From: a virus
Lineage: Duplodnaviria > Caudoviricetes
Direction: 5' to 3' (one strand)
IMG/VR virus record: IMGVR_UViG_3300030328_000938
Span: 1 to 60,294 of that record
DNA: 60,294 bases
Shown here: in pieces, positions 1-58,852 of the stretch
How the letters are laid out: each line of letters starts with the position of its first letter
How positions within the stretch are numbered: position 1 is the stretch's first letter
Notes under the pieces: generated by a model
Database searches by the model: none
Told to the model about the DNA's origin: nothing
The model's input: the letters and a program-made list of their open reading frames with translations, nothing else
Program-made: the position numbers and the translations under genes

Positions 1-336
1 AAATGCATTAGGTTTATCAATCGGTTGATTGCGATTATCTAATACAGGATGTATCTGAGTTCTACTTACAGGCTCACTATCTCCTGTTGGCACAGTCACA
101 GTAACTTGAACAAAACAACCCGCTTCAGTTTGCATATATGGTTGTTTAGCACCTTCAAGTCCCCATTCATGTATAGTCCATGTAGCGTCTGGAGCAACTT
201 TAAGAAACTCTCTAACTGCCCACGCCCAACTAAGATAAGTGAAGTTACCTTTCTTCTTAGTAAACTCATTTACATTTAATTCGTTCAACTGGTCAAATAT
301 GTCTTGTATTCTACTCTTTGTTTTCTTTGTTGGCAT
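1..336 (-). CDS. Sak/Rad52-like single-strand annealing protein (DUF1071-type), N-terminal part, runs off the left edge
   Basis: Hand translation from ATG at 336: MPTKKTKSRIQDIFDQLNELNVNEFTKKKGNFTYLSWAWAV...HPVLDNRNQPIDKPNAF. The YLSWAWA motif is typical of Sak. Not in the ORF track. Confidence 0.85.
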   Translation of the reverse strand, partial: MPTKKTKSRIQDIFDQLNELNVNEFTKKKGNFTYLSWAWAVREFLKVAPDATWTIHEWGLEGAKQPYMQTEAGCFVQVTVTVPTGDSEPVSRTQIHPVLDNRNQPIDKPNAF

Positions 337-502
337 CTTTGCTCTCCTCGTTTTCAAATACCATTTTTACTGCATTAGTAGTGTTGTAAGCACTCTGTAT
401 GTACACTTTGGTGTATTTAGTTAAGTTATTAGCTTTTAGAAAAGACTTCGGTAAAGTAATCCTTCCTCTTTCATCAATATTACACTCAGCTATCCACATC
501 AT
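311..502 (-). CDS. AbrB/MraZ/SpoVT-like DNA-binding protein
   Basis: IDERGRITLPKS motif. Confidence 0.7.
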   Translation of the reverse strand: MMWIAECNIDERGRITLPKSFLKANNLTKYTKVYIQSAYNTTNAVKMVFENEESKDANKENKE

Positions 503-710
503 CTTTCTTCTTCTCCTTTTTCAATGTAAACTGATACATCCAAGCAGAGACTAGTTTTCTAGCCATATGTTTATCTACTCCCATTTCTTCTATTATGAAA
601 TCAGGTGCTTGAAACATATTTATACTTCCTGACTCTCTTAACTCATCCAAAAAGGGAAAAGCCTCTTCTGCTAGTTTGTCAAATAATACATCATGTTCTG
701 TTGTTGCCAC
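486..710 (-). CDS. Hypothetical phage protein (DUF5049-like)
   Basis: LDELRESGSINMF motif; GTG start with GGAGG RBS. Confidence 0.6.
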   Translation of the reverse strand: MATTEHDVLFDKLAEEAFPFLDELRESGSINMFQAPDFIIEEMGVDKHMARKLVSAWMYQFTLKKEKKKDDVDS

Positions 711-834
711 GATATTCCTCCATTCTATTCATTAACATTAAAAACAAATGCAATGATACAAATACAAGTATACTTATTAATAAATACGCTATGCATTGCA
801 TCATCCAATTAGGTAAATCAATCATTATTATCAT
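691..834 (-). CDS. Small membrane protein (47 aa)
   Basis: Hand translation MIIMIDLPNWMMQCIAYLLISILVFVSLHLFLMLM...; ATGA overlap with the upstream gene's stop. Confidence 0.55.
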   Translation of the reverse strand: MIIMIDLPNWMMQCIAYLLISILVFVSLHLFLMLMNRMEEYRGNNRT

Positions 835-1577
835 CTCGTCAATCCCTCACAATATTTTCCTTGATAATCACAATATTTACACTCCCAATTCTCAAAAGGA
901 ACACCAACATCTCCAACTTGTAAATCTTCAGGTTCATCTGTGTCTTCTTTTATTTCATACAACTCTGTCCAATATTCATACGCTTCATCAAACCATACAT
1001 CAGGGATATATTCCTTCCTAACTGTACTAGTGTCTTTGTTATACCACAACAATCCAAGTGTTGCAGTATTTACTTGTAATTCATTACAAATACCCATTCC
1101 ATAAGTAGCTACTTGCATAGCATATCGTCTATCAATCTTATTGACAGCACCTCTGCCATACTTTAGTCTCCACTTATATGAGCCTGCCGTCTTGTAATCC
1201 CATACTTCAACATTACTTATGTCACCATTTACTTCTCTGTATGTGCATAAATCTAAATGACCTAATACATTTAAATCTTCTAGCTCAATACGATGCTCAA
1301 GTAATACTTTGAGATTGTCAGGCTTATTGTCTTCCATATACTTATTAACTGCTAGTTCTAAATCATTATGAACTATAGTACCAAGTCTTAGAAGTCTCAT
1401 ATTTCTAGGTTTTAATTCCTTCTTTTCATCGCCTCTTATCTTATGTAATTGCTTACGATAGCAACTACCCGCTGATGATGCACCAAACATAGATTCAACA
1501 CCTTTGTATTTCTTTTGGTTCTCATCTTGTTCAGATTGCAGAAAAGAATGGTAAACTTGCTCAATGTCAAGATTCAT
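831..1577 (-). CDS. Cas4-like PD-(D/E)XK exonuclease
   Basis: N-terminal SSAGSC, HLD...WDYKT, QVATY and C-terminal CKYCDYQGKYC (Fe-S staple pattern). Confidence 0.85.
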   Translation of the reverse strand: MNLDIEQVYHSFLQSEQDENQKKYKGVESMFGASSAGSCYRKQLHKIRGDEKKELKPRNMRLLRLGTIVHNDLELAVNKYMEDNKPDNLKVLLEHRIELEDLNVLGHLDLCTYREVNGDISNVEVWDYKTAGSYKWRLKYGRGAVNKIDRRYAMQVATYGMGICNELQVNTATLGLLWYNKDTSTVRKEYIPDVWFDEAYEYWTELYEIKEDTDEPEDLQVGDVGVPFENWECKYCDYQGKYCEGLTR

Positions 1578-1601
1578 GTTTTACTCCTTCGCACAGGTCT
1601 A

Positions 1602-1630
1602 AATTTAACAATATCAATAGATAAAGACAA
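1602..1630 (-). promoter_or_regulatory. Sigma70-like promoter upstream of the exonuclease/recombination genes
   Basis: Minus strand reads TTGTCT-N17-TAAATT with an extended -10 TG. Confidence 0.55.
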
Positions 1631-1675
1631 GAAGGAAGGACAATGGAGCTACTCAAAACCTCCCTTCTGTCTTAT
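1621..1675 (-). terminator. Long imperfect hairpin (terminator or processing stem)
   Basis: ATAAGACAGAAGG pairs with CCTTCTTGTCTTTAT, just downstream of the HTH gene. Confidence 0.5.
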
Positions 1676-1694
1676 GGCGTACTCCTAAAGGCTA

Positions 1695-1907
1695 TCAGGG
1701 TACAAGTCTATATTCTGCGTATTTCTTCTTACCAGTGCTGTTCTTATTAATAATTGTGTAGCCTTCATCTCTTAATTCAAAGATGATAGCCGCGAGTCTC
1801 ATACTTCTTATGTCTGGATTCTGCATAGCGTCAAGTGGAGTCAATGATTGTCCTGTCTTTAAATAGTCTAAGACATTATCTTTTTTACTCTTCTTCTTTC
1901 TTACCAT
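1695..1907 (-). CDS. Winged helix-turn-helix protein
   Basis: LTPLDA...RLAAIIFELRDEGYTI pattern. Confidence 0.75.
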   Translation of the reverse strand: MVRKKKSKKDNVLDYLKTGQSLTPLDAMQNPDIRSMRLAAIIFELRDEGYTIINKNSTGKKKYAEYRLVP

Positions 1908-2458
1908 ACCTGAAATCCTCCTGAAGACTCAACAAACAATCTCCATCTCTTAGCTACATCAGTTTTAAATGGATAACTAGCCATAAAGTTTCTAGTTTTA
2001 CCTGTTCCCTTACAAGGGTTACAAGATTTCTTATCACTATTATGTATTCCAGTTCCATTGCAACCAACACACTCTTCATCTTCAAGTTTGTCTTGCCATT
2101 CTTTATAGCTCTTCTCGTACTTCTCTAAAGTTCCATCTTCCTCTGCCTTCCTTAGTAGTCTCGCCATTCTTATTGCAGTAGTCTTAGGCACTTTAATACC
2201 ATCATTAGACATACCTGCATCAATGTGTTTATCTGACATTACATTAAGACACACATCGACTGTATAAGACCACAATCCTCTCCACCACCAGACATTACTT
2301 CTCCAATAGTCTCCGGGGACTGCTTCCTCATACGCTGACACTCTTGCCCAATGGTCTTCTTGCTCATGTTTCTTGAGCTTATTGAAGTTATCAGGATAGA
2401 GTGGTTTCTCGATACCTAAGTGATTGATTGGACTTAATCCATACACATCATATCCCAT
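1901..2458 (-). CDS. Hypothetical phage protein with a DnaJ-type zinc finger insert
   Basis: CVGCNGTG...CNPCKGTG; Trp-rich YWRSNVWWWRGLW; AGGAGG RBS. Confidence 0.7.
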   Translation of the reverse strand: MGYDVYGLSPINHLGIEKPLYPDNFNKLKKHEQEDHWARVSAYEEAVPGDYWRSNVWWWRGLWSYTVDVCLNVMSDKHIDAGMSNDGIKVPKTTAIRMARLLRKAEEDGTLEKYEKSYKEWQDKLEDEECVGCNGTGIHNSDKKSCNPCKGTGKTRNFMASYPFKTDVAKRWRLFVESSGGFQVW

Positions 2459-2493
2459 AGTATCCTCCTTATCTTGCTTGTTATAGGAAATTT

Positions 2494-2577
2494 AGAGGCA
2501 ACTACAATCTTCGGTGACTCCCATCGTGTTAGCCACATTACTGCGCAGTTGGGAACGAACTTGTTATCATTGCCTCT
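2494..2577 (-). ncRNA. Candidate small multibranch structured RNA
   Basis: Closing stem AGAGGCAA(2494-2501)/TTGCCTCT(2570-2577); inner TCCCA/TGGGA, TTCG/CGAA and ACTGCGCAGT hairpin; intergenic. Confidence 0.55.
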
Positions 2578-2586
2578 TTAAAGTTT

Positions 2587-2712
2587 TGGGGGAACTGGTT
2601 CGCCAACCATATACATTTGTCATCCTCTTCTCTTTTGTTCCAAGTATTCTCAGCTAATGCTTCATTGTCTACTCTTTACTCAAGTCAAACTTTGACTAAT
2701 TCTGTCCCCCCA
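2587..2712 (-). ncRNA. Candidate structured RNA (~126 nt)
   Basis: Closing TGGGGG/CCCCCA; inner hairpins at 2596-2609 and 2683-2697; intergenic; strand inferred from context. Confidence 0.45.
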
Positions 2713-2724
2713 TTTACAGGAGTT

Positions 2725-3054
2725 TTAATCCAAGCCGTACTCTTGTTGTATACGACTAATGTGTTCACCTTCAAGGTATAGGTCATAGTTATAACCACAC
2801 ATTTGCTTTAATAAATCATAAGCATCTGTCAATTCATCACGATATTCTTCTTCCTTCATCATATCCATTGATGTATCATAATCAAACATTCCTTCGTGAA
2901 CATGGTAATTTTCATACCTATTTGGCTTATTTTGGGTATTCTTCATATCAAGAGTATCCTTAATAAGTCTAGGTATTGGTAGCTCTTTGCCATACTTCTT
3001 TTGATTGAAGTTTAGAGCTTTATAATAACTGTGTACTGGTTTGTTTTGTTTCAT
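2725..3054 (-). CDS. Hypothetical protein
   Basis: ORF with AGGAG RBS. Confidence 0.65.
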   Translation of the reverse strand: MKQNKPVHSYYKALNFNQKKYGKELPIPRLIKDTLDMKNTQNKPNRYENYHVHEGMFDYDTSMDMMKEEEYRDELTDAYDLLKQMCGYNYDLYLEGEHISRIQQEYGLD

Positions 3055-3083
3055 AACTGTCTCCTAAAGTTATTAGTATGTGT

Positions 3084-3668
3084 TTAACTTTCCAACTCTT
3101 TCATATTGCAATAGTCGTAATAACTACCTTTGTCTGTCCAAACATCCCAATATCCAACCCATCTAACTAGTTCAGGGAAGCGTACAAATCCGTACATATC
3201 AGGGTCTTCGTTCATCCAAGAGTTCTTGATATATTGTTTCAACTTCAATCCTGTATCAACAGGACTAACGCTATTAATATCTCCAACTTTTAGTAGTTTA
3301 TTTTGATTTCTGTCAATTCTAAGGTCAGCCTTCCAACCACAGTTTAATGTTATGTGTAGAGGTGTATCAGAGTTGTGCTGAAATTTATACTGTTTACCCA
3401 CAATACAATCTCTAGTCAAGTGTCCTTTAAGGTCTTTAGTGTTAATATAACAAGCATAAGCACTCATCTCTTCTAATGCAACCATTCCATAAATGAATAC
3501 TTCTTGCAATGGTTTACCTTCACCCCACTTATAACCTTCACCTATCTCAGGTGGTAATATAGGTTCTCTCTCCCCACTTCCTGCGTAATCATATGTCACA
3601 TGAAGTCCATTATGTGGGAAGAATATACCAGAGTATAATTGATTTAAATCTTTTCCATGTATATCCAT
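3084..3668 (-). CDS. Hypothetical protein
   Basis: 194-aa ORF, TAATG-coupled to the upstream peptide gene. Confidence 0.7.
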   Translation of the reverse strand: MDIHGKDLNQLYSGIFFPHNGLHVTYDYAGSGEREPILPPEIGEGYKWGEGKPLQEVFIYGMVALEEMSAYACYINTKDLKGHLTRDCIVGKQYKFQHNSDTPLHITLNCGWKADLRIDRNQNKLLKVGDINSVSPVDTGLKLKQYIKNSWMNEDPDMYGFVRFPELVRWVGYWDVWTDKGSYYDYCNMKELES

Positions 3669-3772
3669 TATTTCCTCGCCTCTTTCTTTCTCTTCTTCTC
3701 TTCACGCTTTCTTCTTTTAATGTCCTCGTTCTTCTTTCGTCTATTTATTTTATTTTGTTTAGCCTGTCTCAT
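3668..3772 (-). CDS. Very basic 34-aa peptide
   Basis: Hand translation MRQAKQNKINRRKKNEDIKRRKREEKKRKKEARK; AGGAG RBS; TAATG coupling to the next gene. Confidence 0.6.
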   Translation of the reverse strand: MRQAKQNKINRRKKNEDIKRRKREEKKRKKEARK

Positions 3773-3804
3773 TTGTCTCTCCTGTTAGTTAATGTTTAAA
3801 AGTA

Positions 3805-4238
3805 TGTGGTCACTCTTTCTCGCTTGATTAGAGTTGTCTATCACAGACTTCAATAGATTATGGATAGCGGTTTTGAACACATTATACCATAAGTACACCA
3901 AGATAACCATAATTCTGAGGAGCTACCTACTGATTAGAATGGCATCTTCTTGCCGATGCCCACAAGGTTCTTCAACCTCATGGTAAGATTCCGTCCTATG
4001 CCTTGCAACGCCTTAACACATTGCTAAGATGACATACGATGACCTGATAAGTCTTGAGTGCTTTCATACCTTTAGGGATAGCAGTAAGACCACTCTATGA
4101 TACTACATCATATCGTATTTGTATCGAAGTCTAGGATAACTTCATAGATACAGTCAAATGTACTCAACTAAGTTTAGTTTAGTTATTTAACGGTTTCCTC
4201 TATTGATGATTAGTCACTATCTACTCAAAGTGACCACA
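3805..4238 (-). ncRNA. Candidate large (~434 nt) structured non-coding RNA
   Basis: No ORF in the track; nested long-range helices 3805-3814/4229-4238, 3850-3857/4199-4206, 4034-4040/4112-4118 and many local hairpins; G-U extension of the closing helix favours the minus strand. Confidence 0.7.
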
Positions 4239-4248
4239 ATTAAAGTTT

Positions 4249-4315
4249 AGGCTCTGCATATCTATCACAAGAAGGATAAGATAGAAGGAACAGATGCGGA
4301 GTCCCTACAGAGCCT
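4249..4315 (-). ncRNA. Candidate small structured RNA with pyrimidine (UCCUUC) loops
   Basis: AGGCTCTG/CAGAGCCT closing stem; inner CTATC/GATAG. Confidence 0.55.
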
Positions 4316-4402
4316 TTAAGTCGCATTGCCAGTTTCTGTCTCCCGGTACTGGTAACCCATAGAGTATAATTTCTTTTAATTTTGGTAAATACTCATTTAA
4401 CC

Positions 4403-4507
4403 TCACCATATCTCTGGACTAGTGATTATAAGCCACCATATAAATGTAGCAAACATCATAAGTACACAAAGAAATTCACCTATAAATCTTTTGGTTGATT
4501 CTCGCAT
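4403..4507 (-). CDS. Small membrane peptide (34 aa)
   Basis: MRESTKRFIGEFLCVLMMFATFIWWLIITSPEIW; GAGG RBS. Confidence 0.5.
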   Translation of the reverse strand: MRESTKRFIGEFLCVLMMFATFIWWLIITSPEIW

Positions 4508-4564
4508 TTTCTTACCTCTAGGTTGTGACAAGTGGACATTTCTGCCCACCTGTCGTTGCAACAA

Positions 4565-4801
4565 CTACTCTGCCAAGAATGACTCTAGGATTAAACTCCC
4601 TTCATCATCTGTTATACAGAGCATAGCCTTTAGTTTATCGTAAGAGACATCTAGCATTTCAGATGCTTTACTACACGCTTTAGATGAATTAGATGCCTTA
4701 ACAAAGCCACCAAATCTCACCTTGCGTGAGGTATTCATTCCATGTTCACCATACAGTAATGATGTACTAGGAACTTCAACCAATATCATATACTTGTGCA
4801 T
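4565..4801 (-). CDS. Hypothetical early protein
   Basis: ORF; ATG at 4801 preceded by AGGAGG is preferred over the start at 4831. Confidence 0.6.
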   Translation of the reverse strand: MHKYMILVEVPSTSLLYGEHGMNTSRKVRFGGFVKASNSSKACSKASEMLDVSYDKLKAMLCITDDEGSLILESFLAE

Positions 4802-4928
4802 ACGATACCTCCTGTTCTGTTGTTGATTCATTCGTTATTTTACAACATACAAGAGTATTATAAGTTAATGCCCATGTTATCCCAATAGAACTATATATAA
4901 ATGGGAGTGAGTGAGCGTATATGTATCA

Positions 4929-4989
4929 TAATTGTACCACTTTATACAAATATACGACTTTATATAAATATATGTTAATTGTACTACTT
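4929..4989. repeat. Three degenerate direct repeats (TACNACTT) in an AT-rich spacer
   Basis: TAATTGTACCACTT 4929-4942, TATACGACTT 4951-4960, TAATTGTACTACTT 4976-4989. Confidence 0.55.
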
Positions 4990-5005
4990 AATTAATAAAT
5001 CAAGG

Positions 5006-5040
5006 TAGGAAAGTGGATACATTGCATACCCACTCTCCCC
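5006..5040 (-). terminator. Hairpin downstream of the first early gene
   Basis: GGAGAGTGGGTA/TATCCACTTTCC stem on the minus strand. Confidence 0.5.
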
Positions 5041-5069
5041 TGAAGACTCCTTAGTATCTTCAATAAACC

Positions 5070-5411
5070 TTACTTAGGATTGATTGCCTCTCGTACTGCC
5101 TCTGCAATGATTGGAGCCATTAGTGTAGCTGTTTCTGTAAGCATATCAGTCTGTGCCTGCTTCTGCTTCTTCATCGCTTTCTTTAGCTTCTTCTCACTCT
5201 TGCCTCTGCGTGCTGATGGATGCTCAGTTTCTGTTATTATAGATACAGCGTGTTCCATAGTTTCAAACATCTGTGAGTACGACCTATCTATACTTCTATC
5301 ACTAAGTGGAAACCTACGACTACGCTTCTGCCTCGCTGAGGTGTATGTAGCGTGTATGTCATCGATAACGAACTCTGCGTTCATCCACTTACCTAATCCG
5401 ACAAATTCCAT
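5070..5411 (-). CDS. Hypothetical protein, first gene of the early arm
   Basis: ORF with TAAGGAG RBS. Confidence 0.7.
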   Translation of the reverse strand: MEFVGLGKWMNAEFVIDDIHATYTSARQKRSRRFPLSDRSIDRSYSQMFETMEHAVSIITETEHPSARRGKSEKKLKKAMKKQKQAQTDMLTETATLMAPIIAEAVREAINPK

Positions 5412-5530
5412 GTTTATTCTCCTTATTAAGTTTACGATTCGATTACAACTAAAAAGTCATAATCAAAAAACCCAAAAAGACCGGGGTAGGGTGTGTATGT
5501 GGTTGCCTATCAAAATACTACAATTTTTTC

Positions 5531-5560
5531 TTGTAAATAACCTGGGCATAGGTATATATT
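5531..5560 (+). promoter_or_regulatory. Candidate late-arm promoter
   Basis: TTGTAA-N18-TATATT ahead of the first + strand gene; similar pattern at 12812 and 36632. Confidence 0.45.
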
Positions 5561-5584
5561 CTAGATAATTGGAGGAATAATATT

Positions 5585-5755
5585 ATGACAATTACATCAA
5601 AACAGTTAACAGGAAATGAAGCCTTTACAGGAGTAGCTAGAACAGAGCATGATAATGCTATGAGGGAAAAGGAAAAATTGATTGCAGAGCTTGAAGAAGT
5701 GAAAGCAAAAGTGGATGCGAAGTCTAAAAAGAAAAGTAAGCAAAAGAAAAAGTAA
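5585..5755 (+). CDS. Small hypothetical protein (56 aa, basic C-terminus)
   Basis: Hand translation MTITSKQLTGNEAFTGVARTEHD...KKKSKQKKK; GGAGG RBS at 5571. Confidence 0.65.
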   Translation: MTITSKQLTGNEAFTGVARTEHDNAMREKEKLIAELEEVKAKVDAKSKKKSKQKKK

Positions 5756-5808
5756 TAGTATATTAATATATATATAATATATAATATATATATGTAATAG
5801 GCTGTGGC

Positions 5809-6054
5809 ATGAATCTTATGGCAGTTGAAATACCTCATTTATCTAATTTCCCATTGGAAGAACAAGAGAGAATCTTGGAAAAGATGGTAACAAACTATGC
5901 TTCTGAAATGATAGCTCAAGAAAAGGCTGAAAAAGAAAAATGGACTTATATAGAAATTGATGGAGAAACTTTTCGGATACATGATAAGGTAAATGATTTA
6001 CTAAATAGCGTTTATCGGATGTATGAAAAGGAAGTCAAAAAAGAGAAGAGTTAA
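5809..6054 (+). CDS. Hypothetical protein
   Basis: ORF, TAATG-coupled to the next gene. Confidence 0.65.
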   Translation: MNLMAVEIPHLSNFPLEEQERILEKMVTNYASEMIAQEKAEKEKWTYIEIDGETFRIHDKVNDLLNSVYRMYEKEVKKEKS

Positions 6055-6824
6055 TGGAGTATAGAGAGATAAAGAGGGTAAAGCATTATGTTTACGATAA
6101 CATTGAAGAGTTTCACAAAGACCACCCTCGTATTACACCCGTGGATGATTGGAAAAAAGGAAAAGAGGGCGATTGGGTGTATTCAAGTGACAATAGGATA
6201 GTTCAACTTCTAAAAGTAAAAGAAGACCTTAAACATCCGAATGACCGACCAAACTATAGTCATAGTAAAGGTTATGTTAGGACTATTGTTGGCACATTTC
6301 TGCGTAATGATAAAACTGAAATGGATACCAACTTTGAAGAGCATCCTAACAGATACACTTTCTCGAAGAAAATTAAAAACACCAATTCACGAATTAGAGA
6401 AAGAAAGAACCCAACGAATAAAGAAAAGCTATTTGCGACAACTGTTGCAATCGGAACCGACGCAGTTAAAGCGTACATGGATGCTTTTCAAGAAACTGAT
6501 AGAGATAAGGCTAGGAAAAAAGCCGTAGTCTTACTTAAACAGAGGAGAGTTATGGAAGAAGTAGAAAAAAATGTGAACGATGTGGCTAAAAAATTAGGCA
6601 TCGACCACGATTATATCCTTAGGTCACTAAAACACCTAGCCGATTATAGTGACGACCAAAATATAGCATTGCAATCCCTAAAGGAGCTTGGTAAGGCAGT
6701 AGGGACTCTAGGTACTGGTACTAAAAAAGTAGAGACTGGAGTGATTGGAATGTTTCAAGGCTTCTCCCCTGAGCAATTACAGGGTGCTAGAAGAGAACTT
6801 AACGAAGAAAACGAGGTAAAATAG
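6054..6824 (+). CDS. Putative terminase small subunit
   Basis: C-terminal half (AVKAYMDAF...LLKQ...ALQSLKELGK) resembles TerS helices; lies upstream of TerL. Confidence 0.5.
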   Translation: MEYREIKRVKHYVYDNIEEFHKDHPRITPVDDWKKGKEGDWVYSSDNRIVQLLKVKEDLKHPNDRPNYSHSKGYVRTIVGTFLRNDKTEMDTNFEEHPNRYTFSKKIKNTNSRIRERKNPTNKEKLFATTVAIGTDAVKAYMDAFQETDRDKARKKAVVLLKQRRVMEEVEKNVNDVAKKLGIDHDYILRSLKHLADYSDDQNIALQSLKELGKAVGTLGTGTKKVETGVIGMFQGFSPEQLQGARRELNEENEVK

Positions 6825-26242: not shown

Positions 26243-26247
26243 GGATA

Positions 26248-26517
26248 ATGGCACACAAGAAGGATGAAACAGCACTAAGAGATATAGGAATAATAATTGG
26301 AATATTCGTAGTCCTATTTTTCTTATTAGTACCACTAGGGTGTTCTGGTTGGTCAATCATGGGTTACGACATATCGCCTAATGATAGCACCTCAGTAGCA
26401 ATCATAGACCAAGATAGTATAATTCATAGATATTTACACCCAGTATTAATCTTAGAAGATAACTGGTGTGAAGAGCATAAGATTTGGGAAAGAGTCGAAA
26501 GGTTGGTAGGTGAGTGA
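26248..26517 (+). CDS. Putative lipoprotein
   Basis: Hydrophobic stretch followed by lipobox-like PLGC. Confidence 0.55.
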   Translation: MAHKKDETALRDIGIIIGIFVVLFFLLVPLGCSGWSIMGYDISPNDSTSVAIIDQDSIIHRYLHPVLILEDNWCEEHKIWERVERLVGE

Positions 26518-26812
26518 GCAAGACAAACCTAAGACGGCAAGGAGCTATCGTGGAACTATGGTCGATGACAACGCTGTTATATCTATCAATATTAAGTGGC
26601 TTATCCAGATGTTTGTGGCTCTCGGTGGACTTATTTATTCGTACTATCAAGTTATCACGAGGATTGACGACCTTGAACGAAGACTTAATGAGGCTGATAC
26701 CACAATTACAGAACTTGTCGAAAAACATATAAAAGAAGAAGAGGAGAGATTTACAGAAATGGAAGAGGAACTGAAATGGCATCAGAAACTCTTAAAAAAG
26801 AAGAAGAAATGA
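26510..26812 (+). CDS. Membrane-anchored coiled-coil protein
   Basis: One TM segment followed by heptads. Confidence 0.6.
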   Translation: MSEQDKPKTARSYRGTMVDDNAVISINIKWLIQMFVALGGLIYSYYQVITRIDDLERRLNEADTTITELVEKHIKEEEERFTEMEEELKWHQKLLKKKKK

Positions 26813-26813
26813 T

Positions 26814-27131
26814 ATGGAAGAATTTTTAGCACTATACTCAGAAGCAGGAATGATAGGCGTTGTTGGAGCAATGTTTGTCTTCATGGTATATCAAAATGCA
26901 AAACGAGCAGAGAGACAAGAAGAAGCTCTTGCATCTCTTAAGGTAGAAAACGAGGGACAGTCAAAAGATTTAGAGAATATTGAATCTATTGTGCTTAAAT
27001 TCTTAGATAGATGGAACAGGTCTGATGAGACACGAGACAGAAGGCACGAAGAAATGGTAAGAGAAATTAATGACCTAAGTGATGTTCTAATGGAAATCAA
27101 AGGGTCTGTATCTAGAATAAATGGAAAGTAA
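26814..27131 (+). CDS. Membrane-anchored coiled-coil protein (holin/spanin-like)
   Basis: N-terminal TM segment, coiled coil, ends RING. Confidence 0.55.
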   Translation: MEEFLALYSEAGMIGVVGAMFVFMVYQNAKRAERQEEALASLKVENEGQSKDLENIESIVLKFLDRWNRSDETRDRRHEEMVREINDLSDVLMEIKGSVSRINGK

Positions 27132-29607: not shown

Positions 29608-30028
29608 TGAAGCAAAGGATAAGTTTCCAGACTATGAGTTCTATCTTGTAGGTTCTCTGACTAGAAATAATCCAAAGCCAAACGATATTGATATTGGAAT
29701 AATCCCACCCAAAGGGAGAGCTATGTTAAGTGCATGGGAAAAGGTATTAGAATTTTTTCATAATAAAAAGATAGATAATTTAAGAGTAGATGCTCAAATA
29801 GTACCTGCTTATAGAAGGTTGTTTAGATTAAGTGGACAGGCAGTTAAGCAACTAGCTAATAGTAAAATTTATAGATATGTTTACCATACTGAAATTCCAC
29901 CAAACAAATTAAATACAAAATACTCAAGAGCTTGTGGTAATCTCTGGAGAAAGAAAGTAAATGTAGTCTCTGATAAATATAAAGCAAGAGGATTGCTTGG
30001 TATGGAGTTTACGAATAGGAGATTATAA
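29588..30028 (+). CDS. Minimal nucleotidyltransferase (Pol-beta superfamily)
   Basis: FYLVGSLTR...NDIDIGII...VDAQI gives GS-x-DxD...D; start more likely 29588 than 29468; TAATG-coupled to the next gene. Confidence 0.75.
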   Translation: MTQALVNEAKDKFPDYEFYLVGSLTRNNPKPNDIDIGIIPPKGRAMLSAWEKVLEFFHNKKIDNLRVDAQIVPAYRRLFRLSGQAVKQLANSKIYRYVYHTEIPPNKLNTKYSRACGNLWRKKVNVVSDKYKARGLLGMEFTNRRL

Positions 30029-31173
30029 TGGCTAAAAAATCAGTAATAAATCCAGGAAAATTTCATTTAGGATATGCATTTGACTTCCCTCCTTATCAGA
30101 ATGAGGAGTATAATGAAGAACATGAAATAAAACAATTAAGATGGAAATCTTCTTGTGTTATGAATAGAAGAGCATATGTAGGCAATGTTAAGATTACAGA
30201 ATACGATGGAACTACTTACACTTTATCTGATTCTGTTTTTAAGTCTAGGACTAATAAGTTTGATTCATTTACCAAAACTAGAAGAATTGATGTAGCAGTT
30301 GGGGACGGAGAAGATATTATTGCATTAGCAGGTTTTGCTGATATGCTTCTTCAGTTTAAACAAACTACATTACACATTATTAATTGTGCAGGAGCATCTG
30401 AGTTCTTAGAAGGTACTTATAAATTTAAAGGAGTTGAACATCCAGCCTCTGTATGTAGTACTGACTTTGGGATTGCTTGGGCAAATAAACATGGAGTATT
30501 TTTCTTTGATGGAAGACAAGTTGAAGATTGCTTTATTAAAAGAGGCGTAAGAAGAATTAAGCCTTCTACATGGTCTACTTTCGCAGGTTCTGATATTTTA
30601 AGAGTTGGCTATCTCCCAGACGAAAGACTCATAATGGTTATCAATGATGATGGAGATACATTTATATATGATATGACTACTAAGTCTTTTACTCAAGGAA
30701 AAACACGAATTAGCGTACATGAAAAGACAAACTTAATTAATATATGGGATGGTACTCTAGTTCTAGGTTCAAATGATGGAACTGGTGATGAGGACTTAGA
30801 TGTTAAACCTATTGAGGCTGTTTCAAGTGCTACTGATAGTGGTAATTTTTATCTCTTAACAAGGCAAGTAGATGGGACATCTCCTACTCAAGAGAAGAAA
30901 TGGAAGAAAGTTTATGTAACATATAGAAACGCAGGTTCGGCTAAAGTAGAATTATCTTATAAAGGCATTAGTAAGAAGGATGGAGAAAGTGCTTTTATTC
31001 CTGTTACTGAGGCTTTTGAAAATAGTGGAAATTGGGAAACAACAGGATTTAAAATTGGTACAAATGCCTATACTATGCAAATTGAAATAAAGCCTAAGTC
31101 TGGTCAACAGATACCTTACAATTTTGAAATTAATGATATAACATTGGTCTATAGAGATAAGAGTGTAAAGTAA
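30028..31173 (+). CDS. Tail tubular/stabilisation (nozzle-like) protein, C-terminal part
   Basis: RAYVGNV, GIAWANKHGVFFFDG beta-propeller-like blades, KKWKKVYVTY, FEINDITLVYR. Confidence 0.7.
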   Translation: MAKKSVINPGKFHLGYAFDFPPYQNEEYNEEHEIKQLRWKSSCVMNRRAYVGNVKITEYDGTTYTLSDSVFKSRTNKFDSFTKTRRIDVAVGDGEDIIALAGFADMLLQFKQTTLHIINCAGASEFLEGTYKFKGVEHPASVCSTDFGIAWANKHGVFFFDGRQVEDCFIKRGVRRIKPSTWSTFAGSDILRVGYLPDERLIMVINDDGDTFIYDMTTKSFTQGKTRISVHEKTNLINIWDGTLVLGSNDGTGDEDLDVKPIEAVSSATDSGNFYLLTRQVDGTSPTQEKKWKKVYVTYRNAGSAKVELSYKGISKKDGESAFIPVTEAFENSGNWETTGFKIGTNAYTMQIEIKPKSGQQIPYNFEINDITLVYRDKSVK

Positions 31174-34100
31174 TGCCATTTGATAGACCTGATAGAAGAC
31201 TCAGGCAATTAAGTCAGCCTGTTACATTAACATACATTCCTTCTGATGATTACGGAAAGAATGGAGATAGAGTTTTCTTTAGAGATGAAGGCTCTAATAG
31301 TATTGAAGAATTATTCAAAAGAGATGGAAGATGGTACTCTGTTACAACTGGAAGACCAGCTAATGATTCAAAGAGAAGAGCAGGTAAAAAAGGAACTAGT
31401 GATGCAGTAGCAACAACTACTGTTCAGAATATTACTGTTAACCAAGATGGCTCAGGTGGAACTGGTACAGGTGGAGGTACTAGCGACCATTCCTTATTAG
31501 AGAACTTAAACCAAGATAATCATTCTCAGTATGTTCATAATACTAATGTAAGAACAGTTTCAGCCTCTCATGTATTTAGTGGCAATCCTTCTTTTACATC
31601 AAATCCCGTTTTTTCTAATACTCCTCAGTTTACTAAAGCAGATGGGAATACTCCATTTACTGTTACATCAACTACTAAGGTTGCTAACCTACATTCAGAT
31701 AATAGTGATAAATGGGATGGTTATCAATTTTCTGACTATTTAGACCAAGCAGTTAAAACAACTAGTGATGTTACTTTTGGTACTATTACTGCTACTGAAT
31801 TATCAGCTGTTCAAGGAGGTATTCACGAACACGATTCAGGAAATACTTACTCAACAGAATTAAGAATGACTCCTACTTCATTGAGTGCTAATAGAACTTT
31901 ATCGATATTGAATGGAGATGCTGATAGGACTATTACTGTTGATGGTAATTTAAATATTGAAAGTGCATCTATTATTAATCAAGATGTTACAACTGATTCT
32001 GATACAACATTTGGGAGTACTACATTAAGCAATCTTACTTCTACTAGACTTATAGCATCTGATGGTAGTAAAAAAGCAGTATCAACAAGTATATCAAGTT
32101 GGGTAGCAGGTACTACTAATCAAATAACGGTTACCGATGATACTGATGGTACAGCTACTTTATCGACTCCTCAAGATATACATACCTCAGCTACTCCTAC
32201 ATTTGCTAGTGCTACATTAGGAACTGTTAATGCAGGTGCTTCAGCGGGGACAGTAACTACTACTACTGGTGACTTGGTTCTTGACTCAGCATCTAATACT
32301 TTAAAGATAAATGCCGATTTAGATGTAGAATCTTCAGTAGATGTGGGTACAAACCTTAATGTTTTAGGCAATACGATATTAGGTGATACTACTGATTTTT
32401 CAGGTTCGGCTGATACTGTTGAGATGAAAGCCAATGTTACTATCAAAGGTGGCTTAACTGTTGATGGAACTACTACGACTATTAATAGTACTACTCTTTC
32501 AGTTGATGATAAGAATATTGAACTAGGAACTGTTGATTCTCCTAGCAATACAACGGCTGATGGTGGAGGAATAACTCTTAAGGGAGCTACTGATAAAACT
32601 ATTAATTGGATTAATTCAACAGGCTCTTGGACTTCTAATCAACCTTTTGAAGTAAGCAATCAATCAAGTCAGCTTAAATTAAGCTATGATAATTCCAATG
32701 CGAGTACTCTAGGAGTAGATAGTGGTGGAATACTCACAATAGGTGCAAGTGATATAAGATTTAATGCAAGTGGTCAAAATGTAGACCCTTCAGCTACCGT
32801 TCATACCGACTTAGGTGCATACAATAGAATGTGGAGAAGTCTATATGCTGCGGAACTTTATGTTGAAAATTTAGTTGCTCAAGATGTTATGGCTACTATG
32901 GGTGGTCGTATTATAGTTGCTCCTACTACAAAGCTAATAGCAAATGTAACTAATAATGCTACAACGATAGATGTTGAACACAATAATATAACTGGTGCAT
33001 ATATAAAACTACAAACTGCTCCTGCAGGTGTTGCTCAAATTGAAATTATGAAAGTAAATACTGGGAGTCCTACTACAATAACTGGTGGATTTAGATACAC
33101 AGTTACAAGAAATGCAGATGGCTCAGGTGCTAATAGTTGGGTAGAAGGAGATGCAGTTGTCAATTTTGGAGCTTCGAGTGGAGAAGGGTTTATAGATTTA
33201 ACATCTACTACTACATCATTAAATCATCTCGGTCCGAATATGACAATCTATTCAAGAAAAGATATGAACGCTTGGGATAGAATGGATGCCACGGTTTCAA
33301 TAGGTAACCTAGAAAGTTGGGTTGATTATAGTTCAGATGAGTTTGGAATTGCTATTGGTATGAATATGCTTAATTCTCCAAATGCTAACTCTGGTCCTTT
33401 TACAGGACTAACTGCTGATAGAACTAATGGTCTTAGACTATTTAATACTCCTATTGAGATGTATAGAGCAGGCGTAAAGAAAGTTAAGATTACTTCTTCT
33501 GGTGGTATAAAATTAGGTGACCAAATAGATGGTGGTAGTGAGGATGTAAAATTTGATTGGGATGAGGATAATGATAAATTAACCATATCAGGTATTATCC
33601 ATGTTCAAGATGGAAGTACTGGAATGGGAGACGATATAAGCGAAGGAACAACAATATCATCAGGGGGAGTTTATGTTAATAGTGGTACAGGAAAGTTTAC
33701 AATATCTAATACTTCAAATAGTATTAGTTATGGTGATGCTAGTGCTATATTTCTTGGACTTGATTCTGCTACTCCTAAACTATCTCTAAAGGGTGCAGGA
33801 ACAGAGGGATTAACTTGGGATGGAAGTAGTTTAAGTGTAACTGGAACAATCAATGTTCAGAATCCAGGTGACTTTGCAGGTGCATCTTTACAAGAGCAGT
33901 TTGGAGGTAGTTCATTAGATTTAACTACTTGGACAATTAATTACGGACTTGTTACTATTGCTAATCAATCTATGACTTTTAGTGGTACAACAGATGAACA
34001 ATGGAATGTAGTTAGTGGTGATTCAATTTTTAAAAGAGCGAATAGACCAGTTTTTGAATGGGATGTAGAAATAACAGGTGCGAATCCTAATTATGTACTT

Positions 34101-36314
34101 GGTCTTTGGAACGCTGATGTTAGTATTACATCTCATTATTATTCACACTATGGTGTTATTTTTAGAAAGTCTAGTGCAAGTAGTACTAAATATATAGAAG
34201 CTAGATGGGAACAGAATGGGGGTTATAGTACTCACCAAGATTTAGTTGGTTCATCTACTGCATGGGATATTGGTGATGTATTTAGATGTAGAATAAGTTT
34301 ACTTGCTACTGGTGGTTATTTAGAGATATTTAAAAATGGTAACTACACATCTCCTCTTTATACACATACTTATACTTATAATACATTTGAAAATATTAAA
34401 GTAATTATGAAAGCATATAAGCAATCTAACTATACTATTGATGGTATAAAATTTCTTGGAGTAACTGCTAATGGTCACTTACCAATGGGTACTCGTATTG
34501 ATGGTAATATGATTAGCACAGGTCAAATAGAAAGTAATAATTGGAGTTCAAGTGCAGGTTCTAGATTAAACTTAGATGATGGCTCTATGACTATGGGTGG
34601 CTCTAGCTCTCCTACTCTTAGTGTTCATGCTAATGGTGATGTAACTATGACAGGAACCGTTACTGCAAACGCAGGTTCTATTGCAGGGTGGACTATAGAC
34701 TCTGATAAGTTATTTAAAGATGGTATGTGGTTAGGTAAAACTGGTGCAAGTGGTCAAAATGCTACTGTTAGAGAATTAAGAGTAAGTTCAGATGAGACTG
34801 GAACTGGAAATTCTAATTTTGTTAGGATGTATATAGATTCTGGTACTGATGATACTTGGGGAATAGAAGGATACGCAGATGGTAATGAGCAATTTCATTT
34901 AGGTGAAATAACAGGAACTGCTACTAATCGTATAGCAGGTTGGACTTTTGATAATACTAATTTTTATAAAGTTCAAGATAGTAAATATATTGGATTAACA
35001 ACAAATGCTCATAGCGACATAGCAGATGAAAGTCAAACCCTATCTTCTGTTTTCGCAGGTGGTACTGGTTCCACAGGTGCAGGTTCTACAATATCTATAT
35101 CTTCAGATGGTAAATTTAGAGGGAATGGTATTTATAGAAGAGGTGGTAAAGATTGGACTATTGAATCTAGTAGACTATTTGGAGATGGTGCTGATGGTTC
35201 TTGGGTACTTAAGGCTGAAGATGGTCGTTATCAAGTTAAATCAGTAGGACATCCTCAACAAAGTCTAGATGCTTATAATGGCATTAATCAAAACTCTACA
35301 GATGCTTCAAATAATGGTACTGCGGGAGGTCTAGGTTCTTGGGAAGATGCTGATGATTGGGGACAGATATTTTATGATTCATCTCAGCAAGATGGATATA
35401 GGTATCAAATAAAATTATTAAGAGATGTTTATTTAGAAAAACTTGAATTTGAACAAGCTAGTAACGACTATCCCGTAATTCAAACTAATGGATATAGAAT
35501 GTTTGTTAGAGATAGAATACATATAGGAAGTGGTTTTTCTTCTAGTGAGTATGTAAGATTTAGAAATAGAGGGGAGGCAGGGACAGGAGGTTCATCAGGT
35601 TCTGTTGGATATTCAAATGATGATGGTTCTACTATAGCTGGTCCAAGTGGTACTACTGGTGGTGGAATCGGTGGAACAGGGGGAGCTGGTGGTACTTTAA
35701 GAGGAGGAAGAGATGGAAGAAATGGTGGTAATGGTGGCGCGGCAGGTGGAGTTTCTAGTCAAAATGGTACAAGTGGAACAACAGGCTCTGGTAGTTCGAG
35801 TGGACTTGGCTCATATAGTGTTACATTAGAAGGTAAGACTGGTGCGCAGGGAGGCAATGGAGGTACGGGTGGAGATATGTCAGGAGGTAATAATGGTGGT
35901 TCTTCAGGTCCAGCAGGTACTTCTTATAATGGTGGTACTGCTACTCAAGCAAAAACTAGAATACAACACGCTGACCCTCACTTATTAACAATGTTTAGAG
36001 ATGTATATAGTGAAGCAGATGATTCAGATAGAATATCTCCTTCAGCTGGTTCCTCTGGTGGAGGGGGAGGCGGTGGAGGCGGTGGTGCTTACTTCCAACA
36101 AGATACTGAAGCTATCACAGGAGGCTCAGGTGGAGAAGGAGGAGGAGCAGGAGGCTCAGGTGGAACTATATTAATATGTTGTAGGTTATTTACATCAGAT
36201 GGTGGAAAGTTTAATTTTGATGCTCGTGGTGGAGATGGTGGTAATGGTGGCGATGGTGGATATAGAGGTTATACTGATGATTTTGGTGGTGGTGGCTCAG
36301 GTGGACCTCCATAA
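31173..36314 (+). CDS. Long tail fibre protein with a Gly-rich C-terminal domain
   Basis: Fibre motifs (DNHSQY, GGLTVDGTTTTINST, GSIAGWTI); FGDGADG followed by poly-Gly region. Confidence 0.8.
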   Translation: MPFDRPDRRLRQLSQPVTLTYIPSDDYGKNGDRVFFRDEGSNSIEELFKRDGRWYSVTTGRPANDSKRRAGKKGTSDAVATTTVQNITVNQDGSGGTGTGGGTSDHSLLENLNQDNHSQYVHNTNVRTVSASHVFSGNPSFTSNPVFSNTPQFTKADGNTPFTVTSTTKVANLHSDNSDKWDGYQFSDYLDQAVKTTSDVTFGTITATELSAVQGGIHEHDSGNTYSTELRMTPTSLSANRTLSILNGDADRTITVDGNLNIESASIINQDVTTDSDTTFGSTTLSNLTSTRLIASDGSKKAVSTSISSWVAGTTNQITVTDDTDGTATLSTPQDIHTSATPTFASATLGTVNAGASAGTVTTTTGDLVLDSASNTLKINADLDVESSVDVGTNLNVLGNTILGDTTDFSGSADTVEMKANVTIKGGLTVDGTTTTINSTTLSVDDKNIELGTVDSPSNTTADGGGITLKGATDKTINWINSTGSWTSNQPFEVSNQSSQLKLSYDNSNASTLGVDSGGILTIGASDIRFNASGQNVDPSATVHTDLGAYNRMWRSLYAAELYVENLVAQDVMATMGGRIIVAPTTKLIANVTNNATTIDVEHNNITGAYIKLQTAPAGVAQIEIMKVNTGSPTTITGGFRYTVTRNADGSGANSWVEGDAVVNFGASSGEGFIDLTSTTTSLNHLGPNMTIYSRKDMNAWDRMDATVSIGNLESWVDYSSDEFGIAIGMNMLNSPNANSGPFTGLTADRTNGLRLFNTPIEMYRAGVKKVKITSSGGIKLGDQIDGGSEDVKFDWDEDNDKLTISGIIHVQDGSTGMGDDISEGTTISSGGVYVNSGTGKFTISNTSNSISYGDASAIFLGLDSATPKLSLKGAGTEGLTWDGSSLSVTGTINVQNPGDFAGASLQEQFGGSSLDLTTWTINYGLVTIANQSMTFSGTTDEQWNVVSGDSIFKRANRPVFEWDVEITGANPNYVLGLWNADVSITSHYYSHYGVIFRKSSASSTKYIEARWEQNGGYSTHQDLVGSSTAWDIGDVFRCRISLLATGGYLEIFKNGNYTSPLYTHTYTYNTFENIKVIMKAYKQSNYTIDGIKFLGVTANGHLPMGTRIDGNMISTGQIESNNWSSSAGSRLNLDDGSMTMGGSSSPTLSVHANGDVTMTGTVTANAGSIAGWTIDSDKLFKDGMWLGKTGASGQNATVRELRVSSDETGTGNSNFVRMYIDSGTDDTWGIEGYADGNEQFHLGEITGTATNRIAGWTFDNTNFYKVQDSKYIGLTTNAHSDIADESQTLSSVFAGGTGSTGAGSTISISSDGKFRGNGIYRRGGKDWTIESSRLFGDGADGSWVLKAEDGRYQVKSVGHPQQSLDAYNGINQNSTDASNNGTAGGLGSWEDADDWGQIFYDSSQQDGYRYQIKLLRDVYLEKLEFEQASNDYPVIQTNGYRMFVRDRIHIGSGFSSSEYVRFRNRGEAGTGGSSGSVGYSNDDGSTIAGPSGTTGGGIGGTGGAGGTLRGGRDGRNGGNGGAAGGVSSQNGTSGTTGSGSSSGLGSYSVTLEGKTGAQGGNGGTGGDMSGGNNGGSSGPAGTSYNGGTATQAKTRIQHADPHLLTMFRDVYSEADDSDRISPSAGSSGGGGGGGGGGAYFQQDTEAITGGSGGEGGGAGGSGGTILICCRLFTSDGGKFNFDARGGDGGNGGDGGYRGYTDDFGGGGSGGPP

Positions 36315-53345: not shown

Positions 53346-53405
53346 AAGGAGAGAGGTCTGACCTTTTTCATAGCTCTCAGGTACCAGTAGCTATTACTCC
53401 CCTTC
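53345..53405. terminator. Branched stem-loop at the convergence of the two arms
   Basis: GAAGG/CCTTC closing stem; inner AGGT/ACCT and ATAGCT/AGCTAT hairpins. Confidence 0.45.
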
Positions 53406-53430
53406 CATACTCATCGTAACCTAATTAAGG

Positions 53431-53643
53431 TCAATTCCATCCATTATTTTTATGGTACATTTTAATTTCATCAAATGTTGGTAGTCCACTTTTTTCAATT
53501 TGCCTTTTCGCATCATTAACTTGGTCTTCCATCATTTTCATTCCTGTTATTAAATCCATAAATTTCAATTTTCTTTCTTCAGGCAAGTTTAAATATTTTC
53601 TTATCTTTTTTGTTTCTCTTATAGATTCTTTTTTGGATACCAT
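53431..53643 (-). CDS. Hypothetical protein
   Basis: ATG at 53643 with AGGAGAGG RBS. Confidence 0.55.
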   Translation of the reverse strand: MVSKKESIRETKKIRKYLNLPEERKLKFMDLITGMKMMEDQVNDAKRQIEKSGLPTFDEIKMYHKNNGWN

Positions 53644-58186: not shown

Positions 58187-58367
58187 AAGCAGTCTCCTTT
58201 TCTCTAATATCTTTCTGAATTTTCTTTAAATCTTTTAAGAGTGCTTCGTAAGGCTTCTTCCATCTACCATTATCTTCTGTTGGTACTTGGGTACTACAAG
58301 TCATAACTAGACTATTGATTAATATTTCCAATTCACCTGTTGAATATTTTATTTGAACAGTACTCAT
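58104..58367 (-). CDS. Hypothetical protein
   Basis: AAGGAG RBS; coupled. Confidence 0.55.
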   Translation of the reverse strand: MSTVQIKYSTGELEILINSLVMTCSTQVPTEDNGRWKKPYEALLKDLKKIQKDIREKETAYEKQQETEQYGTQNPQECNVKGQATCD

Positions 58368-58763: not shown

Positions 58764-58780
58764 ATCCTATTCCTTAAAGT

Positions 58781-58852
58781 TATGGGGAGATACCTGCTGA
58801 TGCGAGTTTGCTTTGTGGAAGGATATGTATGGAGGATAAGCACCTCCCCATA
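58781..58852 (-). ncRNA. Candidate small structured RNA with anti-SD-like loop
   Basis: TATGGGGAG/CTCCCCATA closing stem; minus-strand loop AUCCUCCAUACAUAUCCUUCCAC. Confidence 0.6.

Follow-up and report, generated by a model that had tools for sequence, protein, structure and literature searches.

Two families of structured RNA in an array of helix-closed intergenic elements of an uncultured marine phage: a possible processed small-RNA system

The complete virus record IMGVR_UViG_3300030328_000938 (Duplodnaviria; Caudoviricetes) comprises 60,294 bp, and the whole of this stretch, positions 1 to 60,294, is referred to here as the window. Its plus-strand genes, which include the small and large (TerL) terminase subunits and the portal, occupy approximately 5.6-53.3 kb, and its minus-strand genes run from approximately 5.4 kb down through position 1 and continue from 60,294 to 53,600. 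The minus-strand block carries many small open reading frames (ORFs), a PD-(D/E)XK nuclease, a DnaB helicase, a Dam methylase and a DUF932 protein; clear Shine-Dalgarno sequences precede the genes, and we presume, by analogy, that this operon of small ORFs and replication genes is early. A preliminary description had pointed to five intergenic elements in the block (E1 to E5), each closed by a G+C-rich terminal helix and followed by an AAAUUU- or ACUUU-like flank, and had proposed that they constitute a processed small-RNA system. Re-reading the sequence against the ORF list, together with a helix scan, bore out this layout. All five elements lie on the minus strand between ORFs, at 2494-2577 (E1, 84 nt), 2587-2712 (E2, 126 nt), 3805-4238 (E3, 434 nt), 4249-4315 (E4, 67 nt) and 58781-58852 (E5, 72 nt), and their closing helices, hereafter clamps, measure 9, 9, 12, 10 and 15 bp, respectively, the last including G-U pairs. 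Directly after the clamps come the flanks: UAAAUUU after E1 (clamp AGAGGCAAU/GUUGCCUCU; AAAUUU at 2488-2493), AAACUUUAAA after E2 (clamp UGGGGGGAC/GUUCCCCCA), UACUUUUAAA after E3 (UACUUU at 3799-3804), AAACUUUAAU after E4 and ACUUUAAGG after E5 (ACUUU at 58776-58780). Four elements form two tandem pairs, with A/U-rich linkers of 9 nt between E2 and E1 (2578-2586, AAACUUUAA) and 10 nt between E4 and E3 (4239-4248, AAACUUUAAU), close to the spacing of about 10 nt first described. E4 and E2 start just past the upstream coding sequence, and E1, E3 and E5 end 20-35 nt ahead of a Shine-Dalgarno sequence and start codon.

The five elements are folded non-coding RNAs of the minus strand rather than chance hairpins. 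Expressed as z-scores against dinucleotide shuffles, the fold energies of E1 to E5 were -2.99, -4.18, -3.58, -3.87 and -2.62 on the minus strand and -2.19, -2.17, -1.77, -1.61 and -0.77 on the plus strand, so that the minus strand folded better in five out of five cases. The association between clamp and flank was examined in the minus block (sense strand, 11,694 nt), counting helices of at least 8 bp with at least 4 G-C pairs and a span of 45-520 nt, and compared with 200 shuffles. Five helices had ACTTT within 4 nt (those of E2, E3, E4 and E5 and an alternative partner of E4), compared with a shuffle mean of 0.16 and a maximum of 2, and none of the 200 shuffles reached four. The same association was seen for 1 of 20 helices on the antisense strand and 4 of 89 in the late region, and ACTTT by itself was not enriched in the block (17 occurrences, 14.8 ± 3.7 expected). 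Helix and ACTTT thus co-occur above chance in this genome; the chance-level co-occurrence that would have undone the original proposal was not what we found.

E1 is a pseudoknotted RNA. Besides its clamp helix, P1 (2569-2577 with 2494-2502), it has an inner helix, P2, an H-type pseudoknot (UUCCCA 2550-2555 with UGGGAG 2518-2523, and GUGGC 2532-2536 with GUCAC 2514-2518) and a small hairpin, and a 10-nt palindrome, ACUGCGCAGU, lies at 2540-2549. A search pattern derived from the window and one relative matched eight viral-contig stretches, all of them true homologs; one was on the same contig as the related locus L137 and two were identical to each other. The alignment on which the structure was named has eight rows, L202 being left out as identical to L198. 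Judged by the proteins they have in common, five carriers fall within the phage family of the window and two are more distant. Across the alignment, 94.3% of the cells paired, compared with 28-47% when the partners were slid, and compensatory changes were present in 11 of 27 pairs, including five of the eight clamp pairs; none of 500 shuffles reached the observed values. The clamp sequence is almost wholly different between members with its pairing kept, and one pair of the pseudoknot stem reads G-C, U-A or C-G depending on the member. A covariance model of E1 run over 88 sources (approximately 1 Mb) recovered the eight known members and no new one, the next match having E = 0.23. The longest ATG frames in the eight sequences were 0-29 aa, with no conserved open frame.

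All eight E1 sequences have a perfect 10-nt palindrome in the same loop columns, in four versions (ACUGCGCAGU, AGCUCGAGCU, AUUGCGCAAU and AGUUGCAACU). Because its central four bases, which cannot pair within the hairpin, vary in a self-complementary manner, the palindrome points to a kissing dimer between two copies, and E1 probably acts as a homodimer through this covarying loop. In phi29 pRNA and in the HIV-1 dimerisation initiation site, loop-loop pairing is likewise kept while the sequence varies, a likeness that we draw in principle only.

E3 is a large multi-helix RNA. Its 12-bp clamp pairs 4227-4238 with 3805-3816, and the conserved features of the interior include the blocks ACCGUUAAA (4186-4194) and UCCCUAAAGG (4069-4078) and the hairpin GGCAUC..GAUGCC (3941-3960). 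G001, the one close complete relative (DnaB 86% identical), carries a 469-nt homolog in the same position, whose clamp differs in sequence and still pairs; this homolog and that of E5 were spotted by eye and then confirmed by alignment. A two-block pattern applied to metagenome contigs gave 69 stretches, seven of them true by blastn, and after leaving out L242, which has the same ends and length as L210, the family comprised eight sequences of 438-486 nt. All carriers are from the same phage family, with E3 located 1-1.5 kb into the minus-strand block. The consensus has 86 predicted pairs in 14 helices, 45 of them with compensatory changes, and 93.4% of the cells paired compared with 38-43% in slid controls, a contrast that is inflated by having predicted the structure from the same eight sequences; no shuffle out of 500 matched it. 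The strand is fixed by invariant G-U pairs, which would become C-A mismatches on the other strand. Coding capacity was not apparent in the eight sequences, since the longest ATG frames (13-62 aa) differed in frame and strand and no ORF was conserved; 31 of the 110 indel runs relative to the window were multiples of three. Some single-stranded blocks, ACCGUUAAA and UCCCUAAAGG among them, are invariant, which hints at tertiary contacts or at sites of binding. A palindromic loop core, AAUU in six and AGCU in two of the eight sequences, was considered as evidence of self-pairing and set aside as too weak in so A/U-rich a sequence.

Further searches for E3 remained within this family. The conserved hairpin as a pattern matched 108 stretches of viral contigs, the sole true ones being those of G001 and of L072, which is identical to it, and one exact E3 pattern gave 41 stretches in genome contigs, none true, hence no bacterial copy by that pattern, and 33 in viral contigs with no new lineage. 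Many chance matches (L315, L318, L321, L323-L325, L329, L330, L332-L336 and L338-L341) came from one sample series, most with the same 132-base spacing; the viral contigs of this series had no blastn match to E3, and their matches are probably due to a gene conserved in some unrelated group of phages. Downstream of E3, starting 32 nt past its end, lies an extremely basic (Lys/Arg-rich) ORF of 34 aa with a good ribosome-binding site (3668-3772, minus strand). There is no sign of a fixed pairing of RNA and protein, since unrelated ORFs follow E3 in the window, G001 and L260.

The remaining elements have fewer relatives. The clamp of E4 (4306-4315 with 4249-4258) surrounds a hairpin in which the motif GGACUCCGCA (4295-4304) spans the 3' end of the stem strand and runs into the loop. 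Homologs were found in L257 (98.7% identical) and L117 (86%, truncated where the contig ends), and GGACUCCGCA recurs in or beside the inner hairpin of elements in L197, L203/L204 and L210 that are likewise helix-closed but have other clamps. E5 has a 15-bp clamp (UAUGGGGAGG../..CUCCCCAUA) and an interior UCCUUCC at 58817-58823; its relatives in G001 (L001:6639-6704) and L187 (1380-1440, minus strand) have in common with it a UGGGGA/UCCCCA clamp and the invariant UCCUUCC. At the E5-type motif site L187 and L210 read ACCUCCUU, which we take to resemble the 3' end of 16S rRNA, and pairing with ribosome-binding sites is a possibility. Exposed C/U-rich motifs are the probable means by which E4 and E5 act. 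In E2 the clamp pairs 2704-2712 with 2587-2595, and the GGUUGGCGAACC hairpin abuts its 3' strand. None of 200 shuffles was as stable as E2, for which the support is its fold (z -4.18) and partial cover in one RNA library. When the five elements were compared by blastn with 80 TerL loci, three matches were obtained (E1 with L137, E3 with G001 and E4 with L117). In substance, the description of the array as end-paired RNAs is right for E1 and E3, likely for E4 and E5 and possible for E2.

There is good evidence that E3 is transcribed. Part of 2400-4900 was present in 20 listed sequencing runs, seven of them recorded as RNA; four of these RNA runs, seawater libraries from three studies, were placed on 1-6000, and they had been chosen for holding this stretch. 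E3 lay under contigs in all four, at 3806-4191 (X6), 3819-4170 (X7), 3950-4203 (X11) and 3833-3983 and 3960-4110 (X16), and a contig of X6 at 2473-2648 covered E1 and part of E2. Among the seven contigs of X7 on 1-6000, that of E3 had the highest depth figure (185.7 vs 3.1-59.8), and the RNA is probably abundant, although contig depth reflects expression poorly. The contig ends (3806, 3819 and 3833; 4170, 4191 and 4203) differ between studies and so define no end. The flanks of E3 had no cover and no contig bridged an element boundary into a neighbouring gene, an absence that, in assembled contigs, is uninformative. Two variant contigs place relatives of both E1 and E3 in RNA libraries: one has an E1 core with unlike flanks, and the other, from X16 (3906-3947 and 4053-4141), is an E3 in which the middle 105 nt are replaced by 106 unrelated ones. 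Since this replacement and the large insertions of L240 and G001 share one region (alignment columns approximately 178-270), E3 holds a variable module within a conserved frame.

Comparison of related genomes indicated that the elements are cassettes that swap intergenic slots within one phage family. E1 occupies the slot of E5 in L199 and precedes different genes in L137, L201 and L204; E1-, E4- and E5-type elements are found in different slots in different genomes; and the same slots in relatives hold non-homologous helix-closed elements, G001 having three of these in tandem (L001:1432-1820, plus strand). The window and L137 share AACUUUAAA-E1-UAAAUUU, and the sequence beyond both linkers, including the upstream element, is unrelated. 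As E1 and its two linkers are all that these two genomes share there, the linkers may also serve as recombination boundaries. L137 contains in addition a gene-free stretch of approximately 660 nt (5716-6381, minus strand), which includes an element of approximately 385 nt whose 11-bp clamp is followed by CUAACUUUAAA, and other loci have gene-free stretches of 500-1080 nt in this part of the operon, including the upstream regions of L149, L160, L135/L136 and L168. None of these large stretches has the E3 motifs, and they may be further undescribed RNA families.

The preliminary description had also suggested a search of related genomes for helix+ACTTT cassettes with variable interiors. In 45 related loci (44 after duplicate removal, plus G001, with the window excluded), AA(A/C/U)UUU within 3 nt of a helix occurred 15 times in sense, compared with four times in antisense and three in shuffled sequence; exact ACTTT after a helix was at chance level, with 5 sense, 4 antisense and approximately 3 shuffled occurrences. 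Therefore, the general feature is an A-run followed by a U-run, of which exact ACUUU is a local form confined to this genome and its closest relatives. The 3' flanks of the eight E3 sequences read AUACUUU in three, (C)AUUUUAA in two, and UUACUUU, UAAUUUU and AGUAAUUG in one each. AACUUUA was also seen before a ribosome-binding site (3071) where there is no element.

E1 and E3 are two new families of phage-encoded structured non-coding RNA, matching nothing catalogued in Rfam. None of the 4227 covariance models of Rfam 15 matched the window at its gathering threshold, and at E ≤ 10 the stretches 2300-5100 and 3790-4250 yielded chance-level snoRNA and CRISPR-repeat matches (12-22 bits, compared with thresholds of 38-100). 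The five loci with E3 homologs that were searched gave one sub-threshold match, to snoRNA Z267, at L239:2012-2086 on the minus strand (33 bits vs a gathering threshold of 43, E = 0.0036), which lies outside E3 and is probably due to chance. ARAGORN found no tRNA or tmRNA gene in the 60,294 bases on either strand. As protein-coding genes the E1 and E3 families were rejected, no open frame being conserved in either. A riboswitch or gene-specific leader was rejected as well, given that neither E1 (window, L137, L199, L201 and L204) nor E3 (window, G001 and L260) has a constant downstream gene. A scan of 1-5600 for intrinsic terminators, taken as short G+C-rich hairpins with a loop of 3-8 nt and a T-run 0-2 nt past the stem, called two sites (5039-5007 and 5485-5471) and none at E1 to E4, E5 lying outside the scanned part; the clamps, moreover, enclose 50-410 nt and have A-rich bases before the U-run. 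An RNase III site of the T7 early type consists of about two turns of nearly continuous double-stranded RNA, for which the clamps (9, 9, 12, 10 and 15 bp) are too short. A literature search that did not extend to subscription papers or supplementary tables found these RNAs nowhere described. A set of 10,006 candidate structured RNAs from IMG/VR intergenic regions has been published (Fremin et al. 2023, PMC10690425), and E1 or E3 may be among these candidates, listed only in the supplementary tables; its main text mentions neither an array of this kind nor an RNA of approximately 450 nt.

The core motif of RNase E is reported as RN↓WUU (PMC5222698), and directly 3' of each clamp lie single-stranded sites that fit this loose motif beside structure (AC↓UUU, AA↓AUU and AA↓UUU). 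ACUUU, AAAUU and AAUUU, single-stranded next to a stable structure, make a textbook setting for RNase E, and processing of the RNase E type at the linkers would be the most economical account of them. The explanation that we lean towards, giving it slightly better than an even chance, is that the elements are structured-RNA genes of the minus-strand operon, whose transcript is cut at the linkers into clamp-protected products that act in trans. Each element would be an independently folding domain with both ends clamped by a G+C-rich helix, separated from the genes and from the next element by A/U-rich single-stranded linkers of the type AAA(C)UUUAA. The elements would be co-transcribed with the flanking ORFs, since linkers of 9-10 nt leave no room for promoters; a host endonuclease preferring A/U and specific for single strands (RNase E/G type, RN↓WUU) would cut the linkers, exonucleases would trim back to the clamp helix, the clamp would stabilise the products, and these would act in trans. 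Two minus-strand pairs of sigma-70-like hexamers upstream of the first small ORF (4978-4949 and 4885-4857) are candidate promoters for a transcript running from E4 to E1; as consensus matches only, they are weak, and the scan of 1-5600 called 14 sites compared with 22.0 ± 4.8 in shuffles. Of the processed small-RNA system first proposed, the distinct, tandem, end-paired RNAs stand, by the covariation in E1 and E3 and by the presence of E3, E1 and part of E2 in RNA libraries, and cleavage at ACUUU is a plausible proposal.

Several observations weigh against this explanation. The motif RN↓WUU is loose enough to fit most A/U-rich 10-mers by chance, by our own estimate and not by a computed control. 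No cultured phage has a TerL more than 25% identical to that of the window, which gives no pointer to the host or to its set of RNases. Long-range helices were in no excess in the minus block (21 vs 23.0 ± 4.9 in shuffles), and the chance level of exact ACTTT in relatives counts in the same direction. The run of A then U was absent from one of the eight E3 flanks and present in six of the eight E1 flanks, the other two reading otherwise. E2 is a single sequence with no homolog in any related locus searched; the support for E5 is its clamp only (10 pairs, three of them compensatory, in three sequences); and the contrast measured for E3 is inflated as stated above. Finally, the RNA evidence consists of assembled contigs only, which carry neither ends nor strand, and DNA carry-over is possible.

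The elements might instead be parts of the mRNA that act in cis and are never released, as 3'-end stabilisers, as 5' leaders or other translation control, or as insulators. This would agree with the placement of E1, E3 and E5 shortly before a Shine-Dalgarno sequence, with that of E4 and E2 after a coding sequence, and with the lack of promoter-like or terminator-like sites called at the elements. We consider it unlikely, though, as E1 is not tied to one regulated gene, its neighbours varying among the window, L137, L199, L201 and L204, and the some 435 nt of E3, its 86 conserved pairs and its invariant single-stranded blocks exceed what a stabiliser would need; the depth figure of E3 in X7, poor measure as it is, does not favour it either. 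That each element is its own primary transcript, with a dedicated promoter and with clamp and U-run as terminator, no endonuclease being required, is distinctly improbable: three or four U do lie within 3-5 nt of every clamp and a promoter-like pair (4452-4425) precedes E4 by approximately 110 nt, but the E4-E3 and E2-E1 linkers of 10 and 9 nt are too short for a promoter, no promoter-like hexamers were called before E1, E2, E3 and E5 and no terminator-like site at any element, promoter-like sites were fewer than in shuffles (14 vs 22.0), and A-rich bases part the U-run from the helix, unlike in intrinsic terminators. A slimmer chance still is given to linkers that are mainly module boundaries for recombination at the DNA level, as proposed for the PeSLs (promoter-terminator cassettes) of T4-type phages, and not RNA cleavage sites. 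The AACUUUAAA-E1-UAAAUUU unit common to the window and L137, with unrelated sequence on either side, and the movement of E1-, E4- and E5-type elements between slots would both follow from it; it accounts for the flanks and not for the RNAs, the linkers are short (7-9 nt) and differ between families, and it could hold together with the explanation that we lean towards. That the helices are inverted repeats arisen by chance in A/T-rich DNA, and the elements mere spacers, can be practically dismissed in spite of the unremarkable number of long-range helices and the singleton E2, for covariation refutes this reading in E1 and E3, the helix+ACTTT level was never reached in 200 shuffles, and the elements show a strand asymmetry of folding in five out of five cases and a presence in RNA libraries.

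We compared the array with known systems. The stable RNAs of the T4 tRNA cluster (species 1 and 2) and of phage tRNA arrays, to which the preliminary description likened the elements as a tRNA cluster without tRNAs, are tandem, co-transcribed and paired at their ends, and are cut from a polycistronic precursor. Here, by contrast, there is no tRNA or tmRNA genome-wide and no T-arm or acceptor geometry was detected, and the processing enzymes would differ. The early RNase III sites of T7 are simple irregular hairpins, cut within the stem, between early cistrons. They resemble the array as structured elements that lie between the cistrons of an early polycistronic transcript and define mature RNAs, but here short clamps surround large covarying interiors and the conserved feature is the single-stranded flank. 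Small RNAs released by RNase E (3'UTR-derived RNAs, ArcZ and RprA), as far as they are presented in PMC5222698, similarly have structure beside an A/U-rich RN↓WUU site and a stable folded product; they differ in ending in an intrinsic terminator and binding Hfq, whereas these elements have a 5'-3' clamp, stand in tandem and would be released by a putative cleavage. The PeSLs of T4-type phages are reported to be a promoter and stem-loop flanking ORFs and are proposed to shuffle modules (PMC2839356, PMC4122927); in both systems repeated short motifs bound shuffled modules in hyperplastic early regions, but here the modules themselves are RNAs. Assignment of the elements as PeSL cassettes was rejected, there being no promoter-like hexamer pairs at their junctions. 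GOLLD, ROOL and OLE RNAs are reported to form homo-oligomers (PMC12286853). E3 is like them in being large, multi-helix, supported by covariation and phage-carried, and it falls within the kind of ornate RNAs by its more than 400 nt, its many covarying helices and its lack of coding capacity; the covarying palindromic loop of E1 would allow self-pairing. E3 is shorter, however, any oligomerisation of E3 or E1 would be putative, and homology to GOLLD, ROOL or OLE was rejected, no Rfam match being found.

To our knowledge, few phage-encoded structured RNAs other than tRNAs are described, and the RNA-only assemblies of GOLLD and ROOL have been shown only recently. One operon here yields two well-supported new RNA families in a common ocean phage family, in an unusual arrangement of clamped tandem cassettes, parted by linkers, that swap slots within the family. 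The length of E3 suits cryo-electron microscopy, and E1 comes with a sharp prediction that can be checked at the bench, dimerisation through its 10-nt palindrome. The cassette behaviour suggests that early operons trade RNAs as they do small ORFs, an exchange that gene-centred virome annotation misses. Going further, the elements might form an exchangeable toolkit of early self-contained RNAs, cut at the linkers and including a new ornate class (E3) and the homodimeric E1, that acts, as protein-free or protein-binding particles, in host takeover or counter-defence; as a whole, we regard this as a doubtful proposition.

The phage family that carries the elements is uncultured, marine and abundant in metagenomes. 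TerL had 1327 homologs in metagenomes at E ≤ 1e-10, and 488 of the 599 pattern-matched viral-contig stretches were confirmed. Searches from the early region itself were less productive: the proteins encoded at 3084-3668, 1901-2458 and 831-1577 retrieved no related viral contigs, 2400-4900 had no blastn match among cultured phages, and a 2.5-kb stretch searched against G001 gave chance-level matches only. On the plus strand, two proteins of 1713 aa (31173-36314) and 3009 aa (41620-50649) take up approximately one quarter of the genome and had no PHROG family at E ≤ 0.001. No further clamp-closed element was apparent in the gaps at 58187-58363, 1578-1694, 53346-53618, 26243-27086 and 29608-30027. 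In that at 1578-1694, between the nuclease gene and a 70-aa ORF, a long G+C-rich minus-strand hairpin followed by UUUAUC is kept in G001 (L001:3441-3529, 82% over 49 nt); it looks like an ordinary terminator or stabiliser and does not resemble the clamp-closed elements. A minus-strand ORF of 113 aa (5070-5411) has a 40%-identical homolog in L117, is covered in the RNA library X7 by a contig whose depth figure is 59.8, and is followed by a 15-bp hairpin at 5039-5007 that was called terminator-like. The longest ORF there, on the plus strand (5080-5568; 162 aa, Cys/Ser/Phe-rich), is probably spurious. The homolog, the RNA contig and the hairpin together indicate that the minus-strand block begins further to the right than the GC-skew switch suggests.

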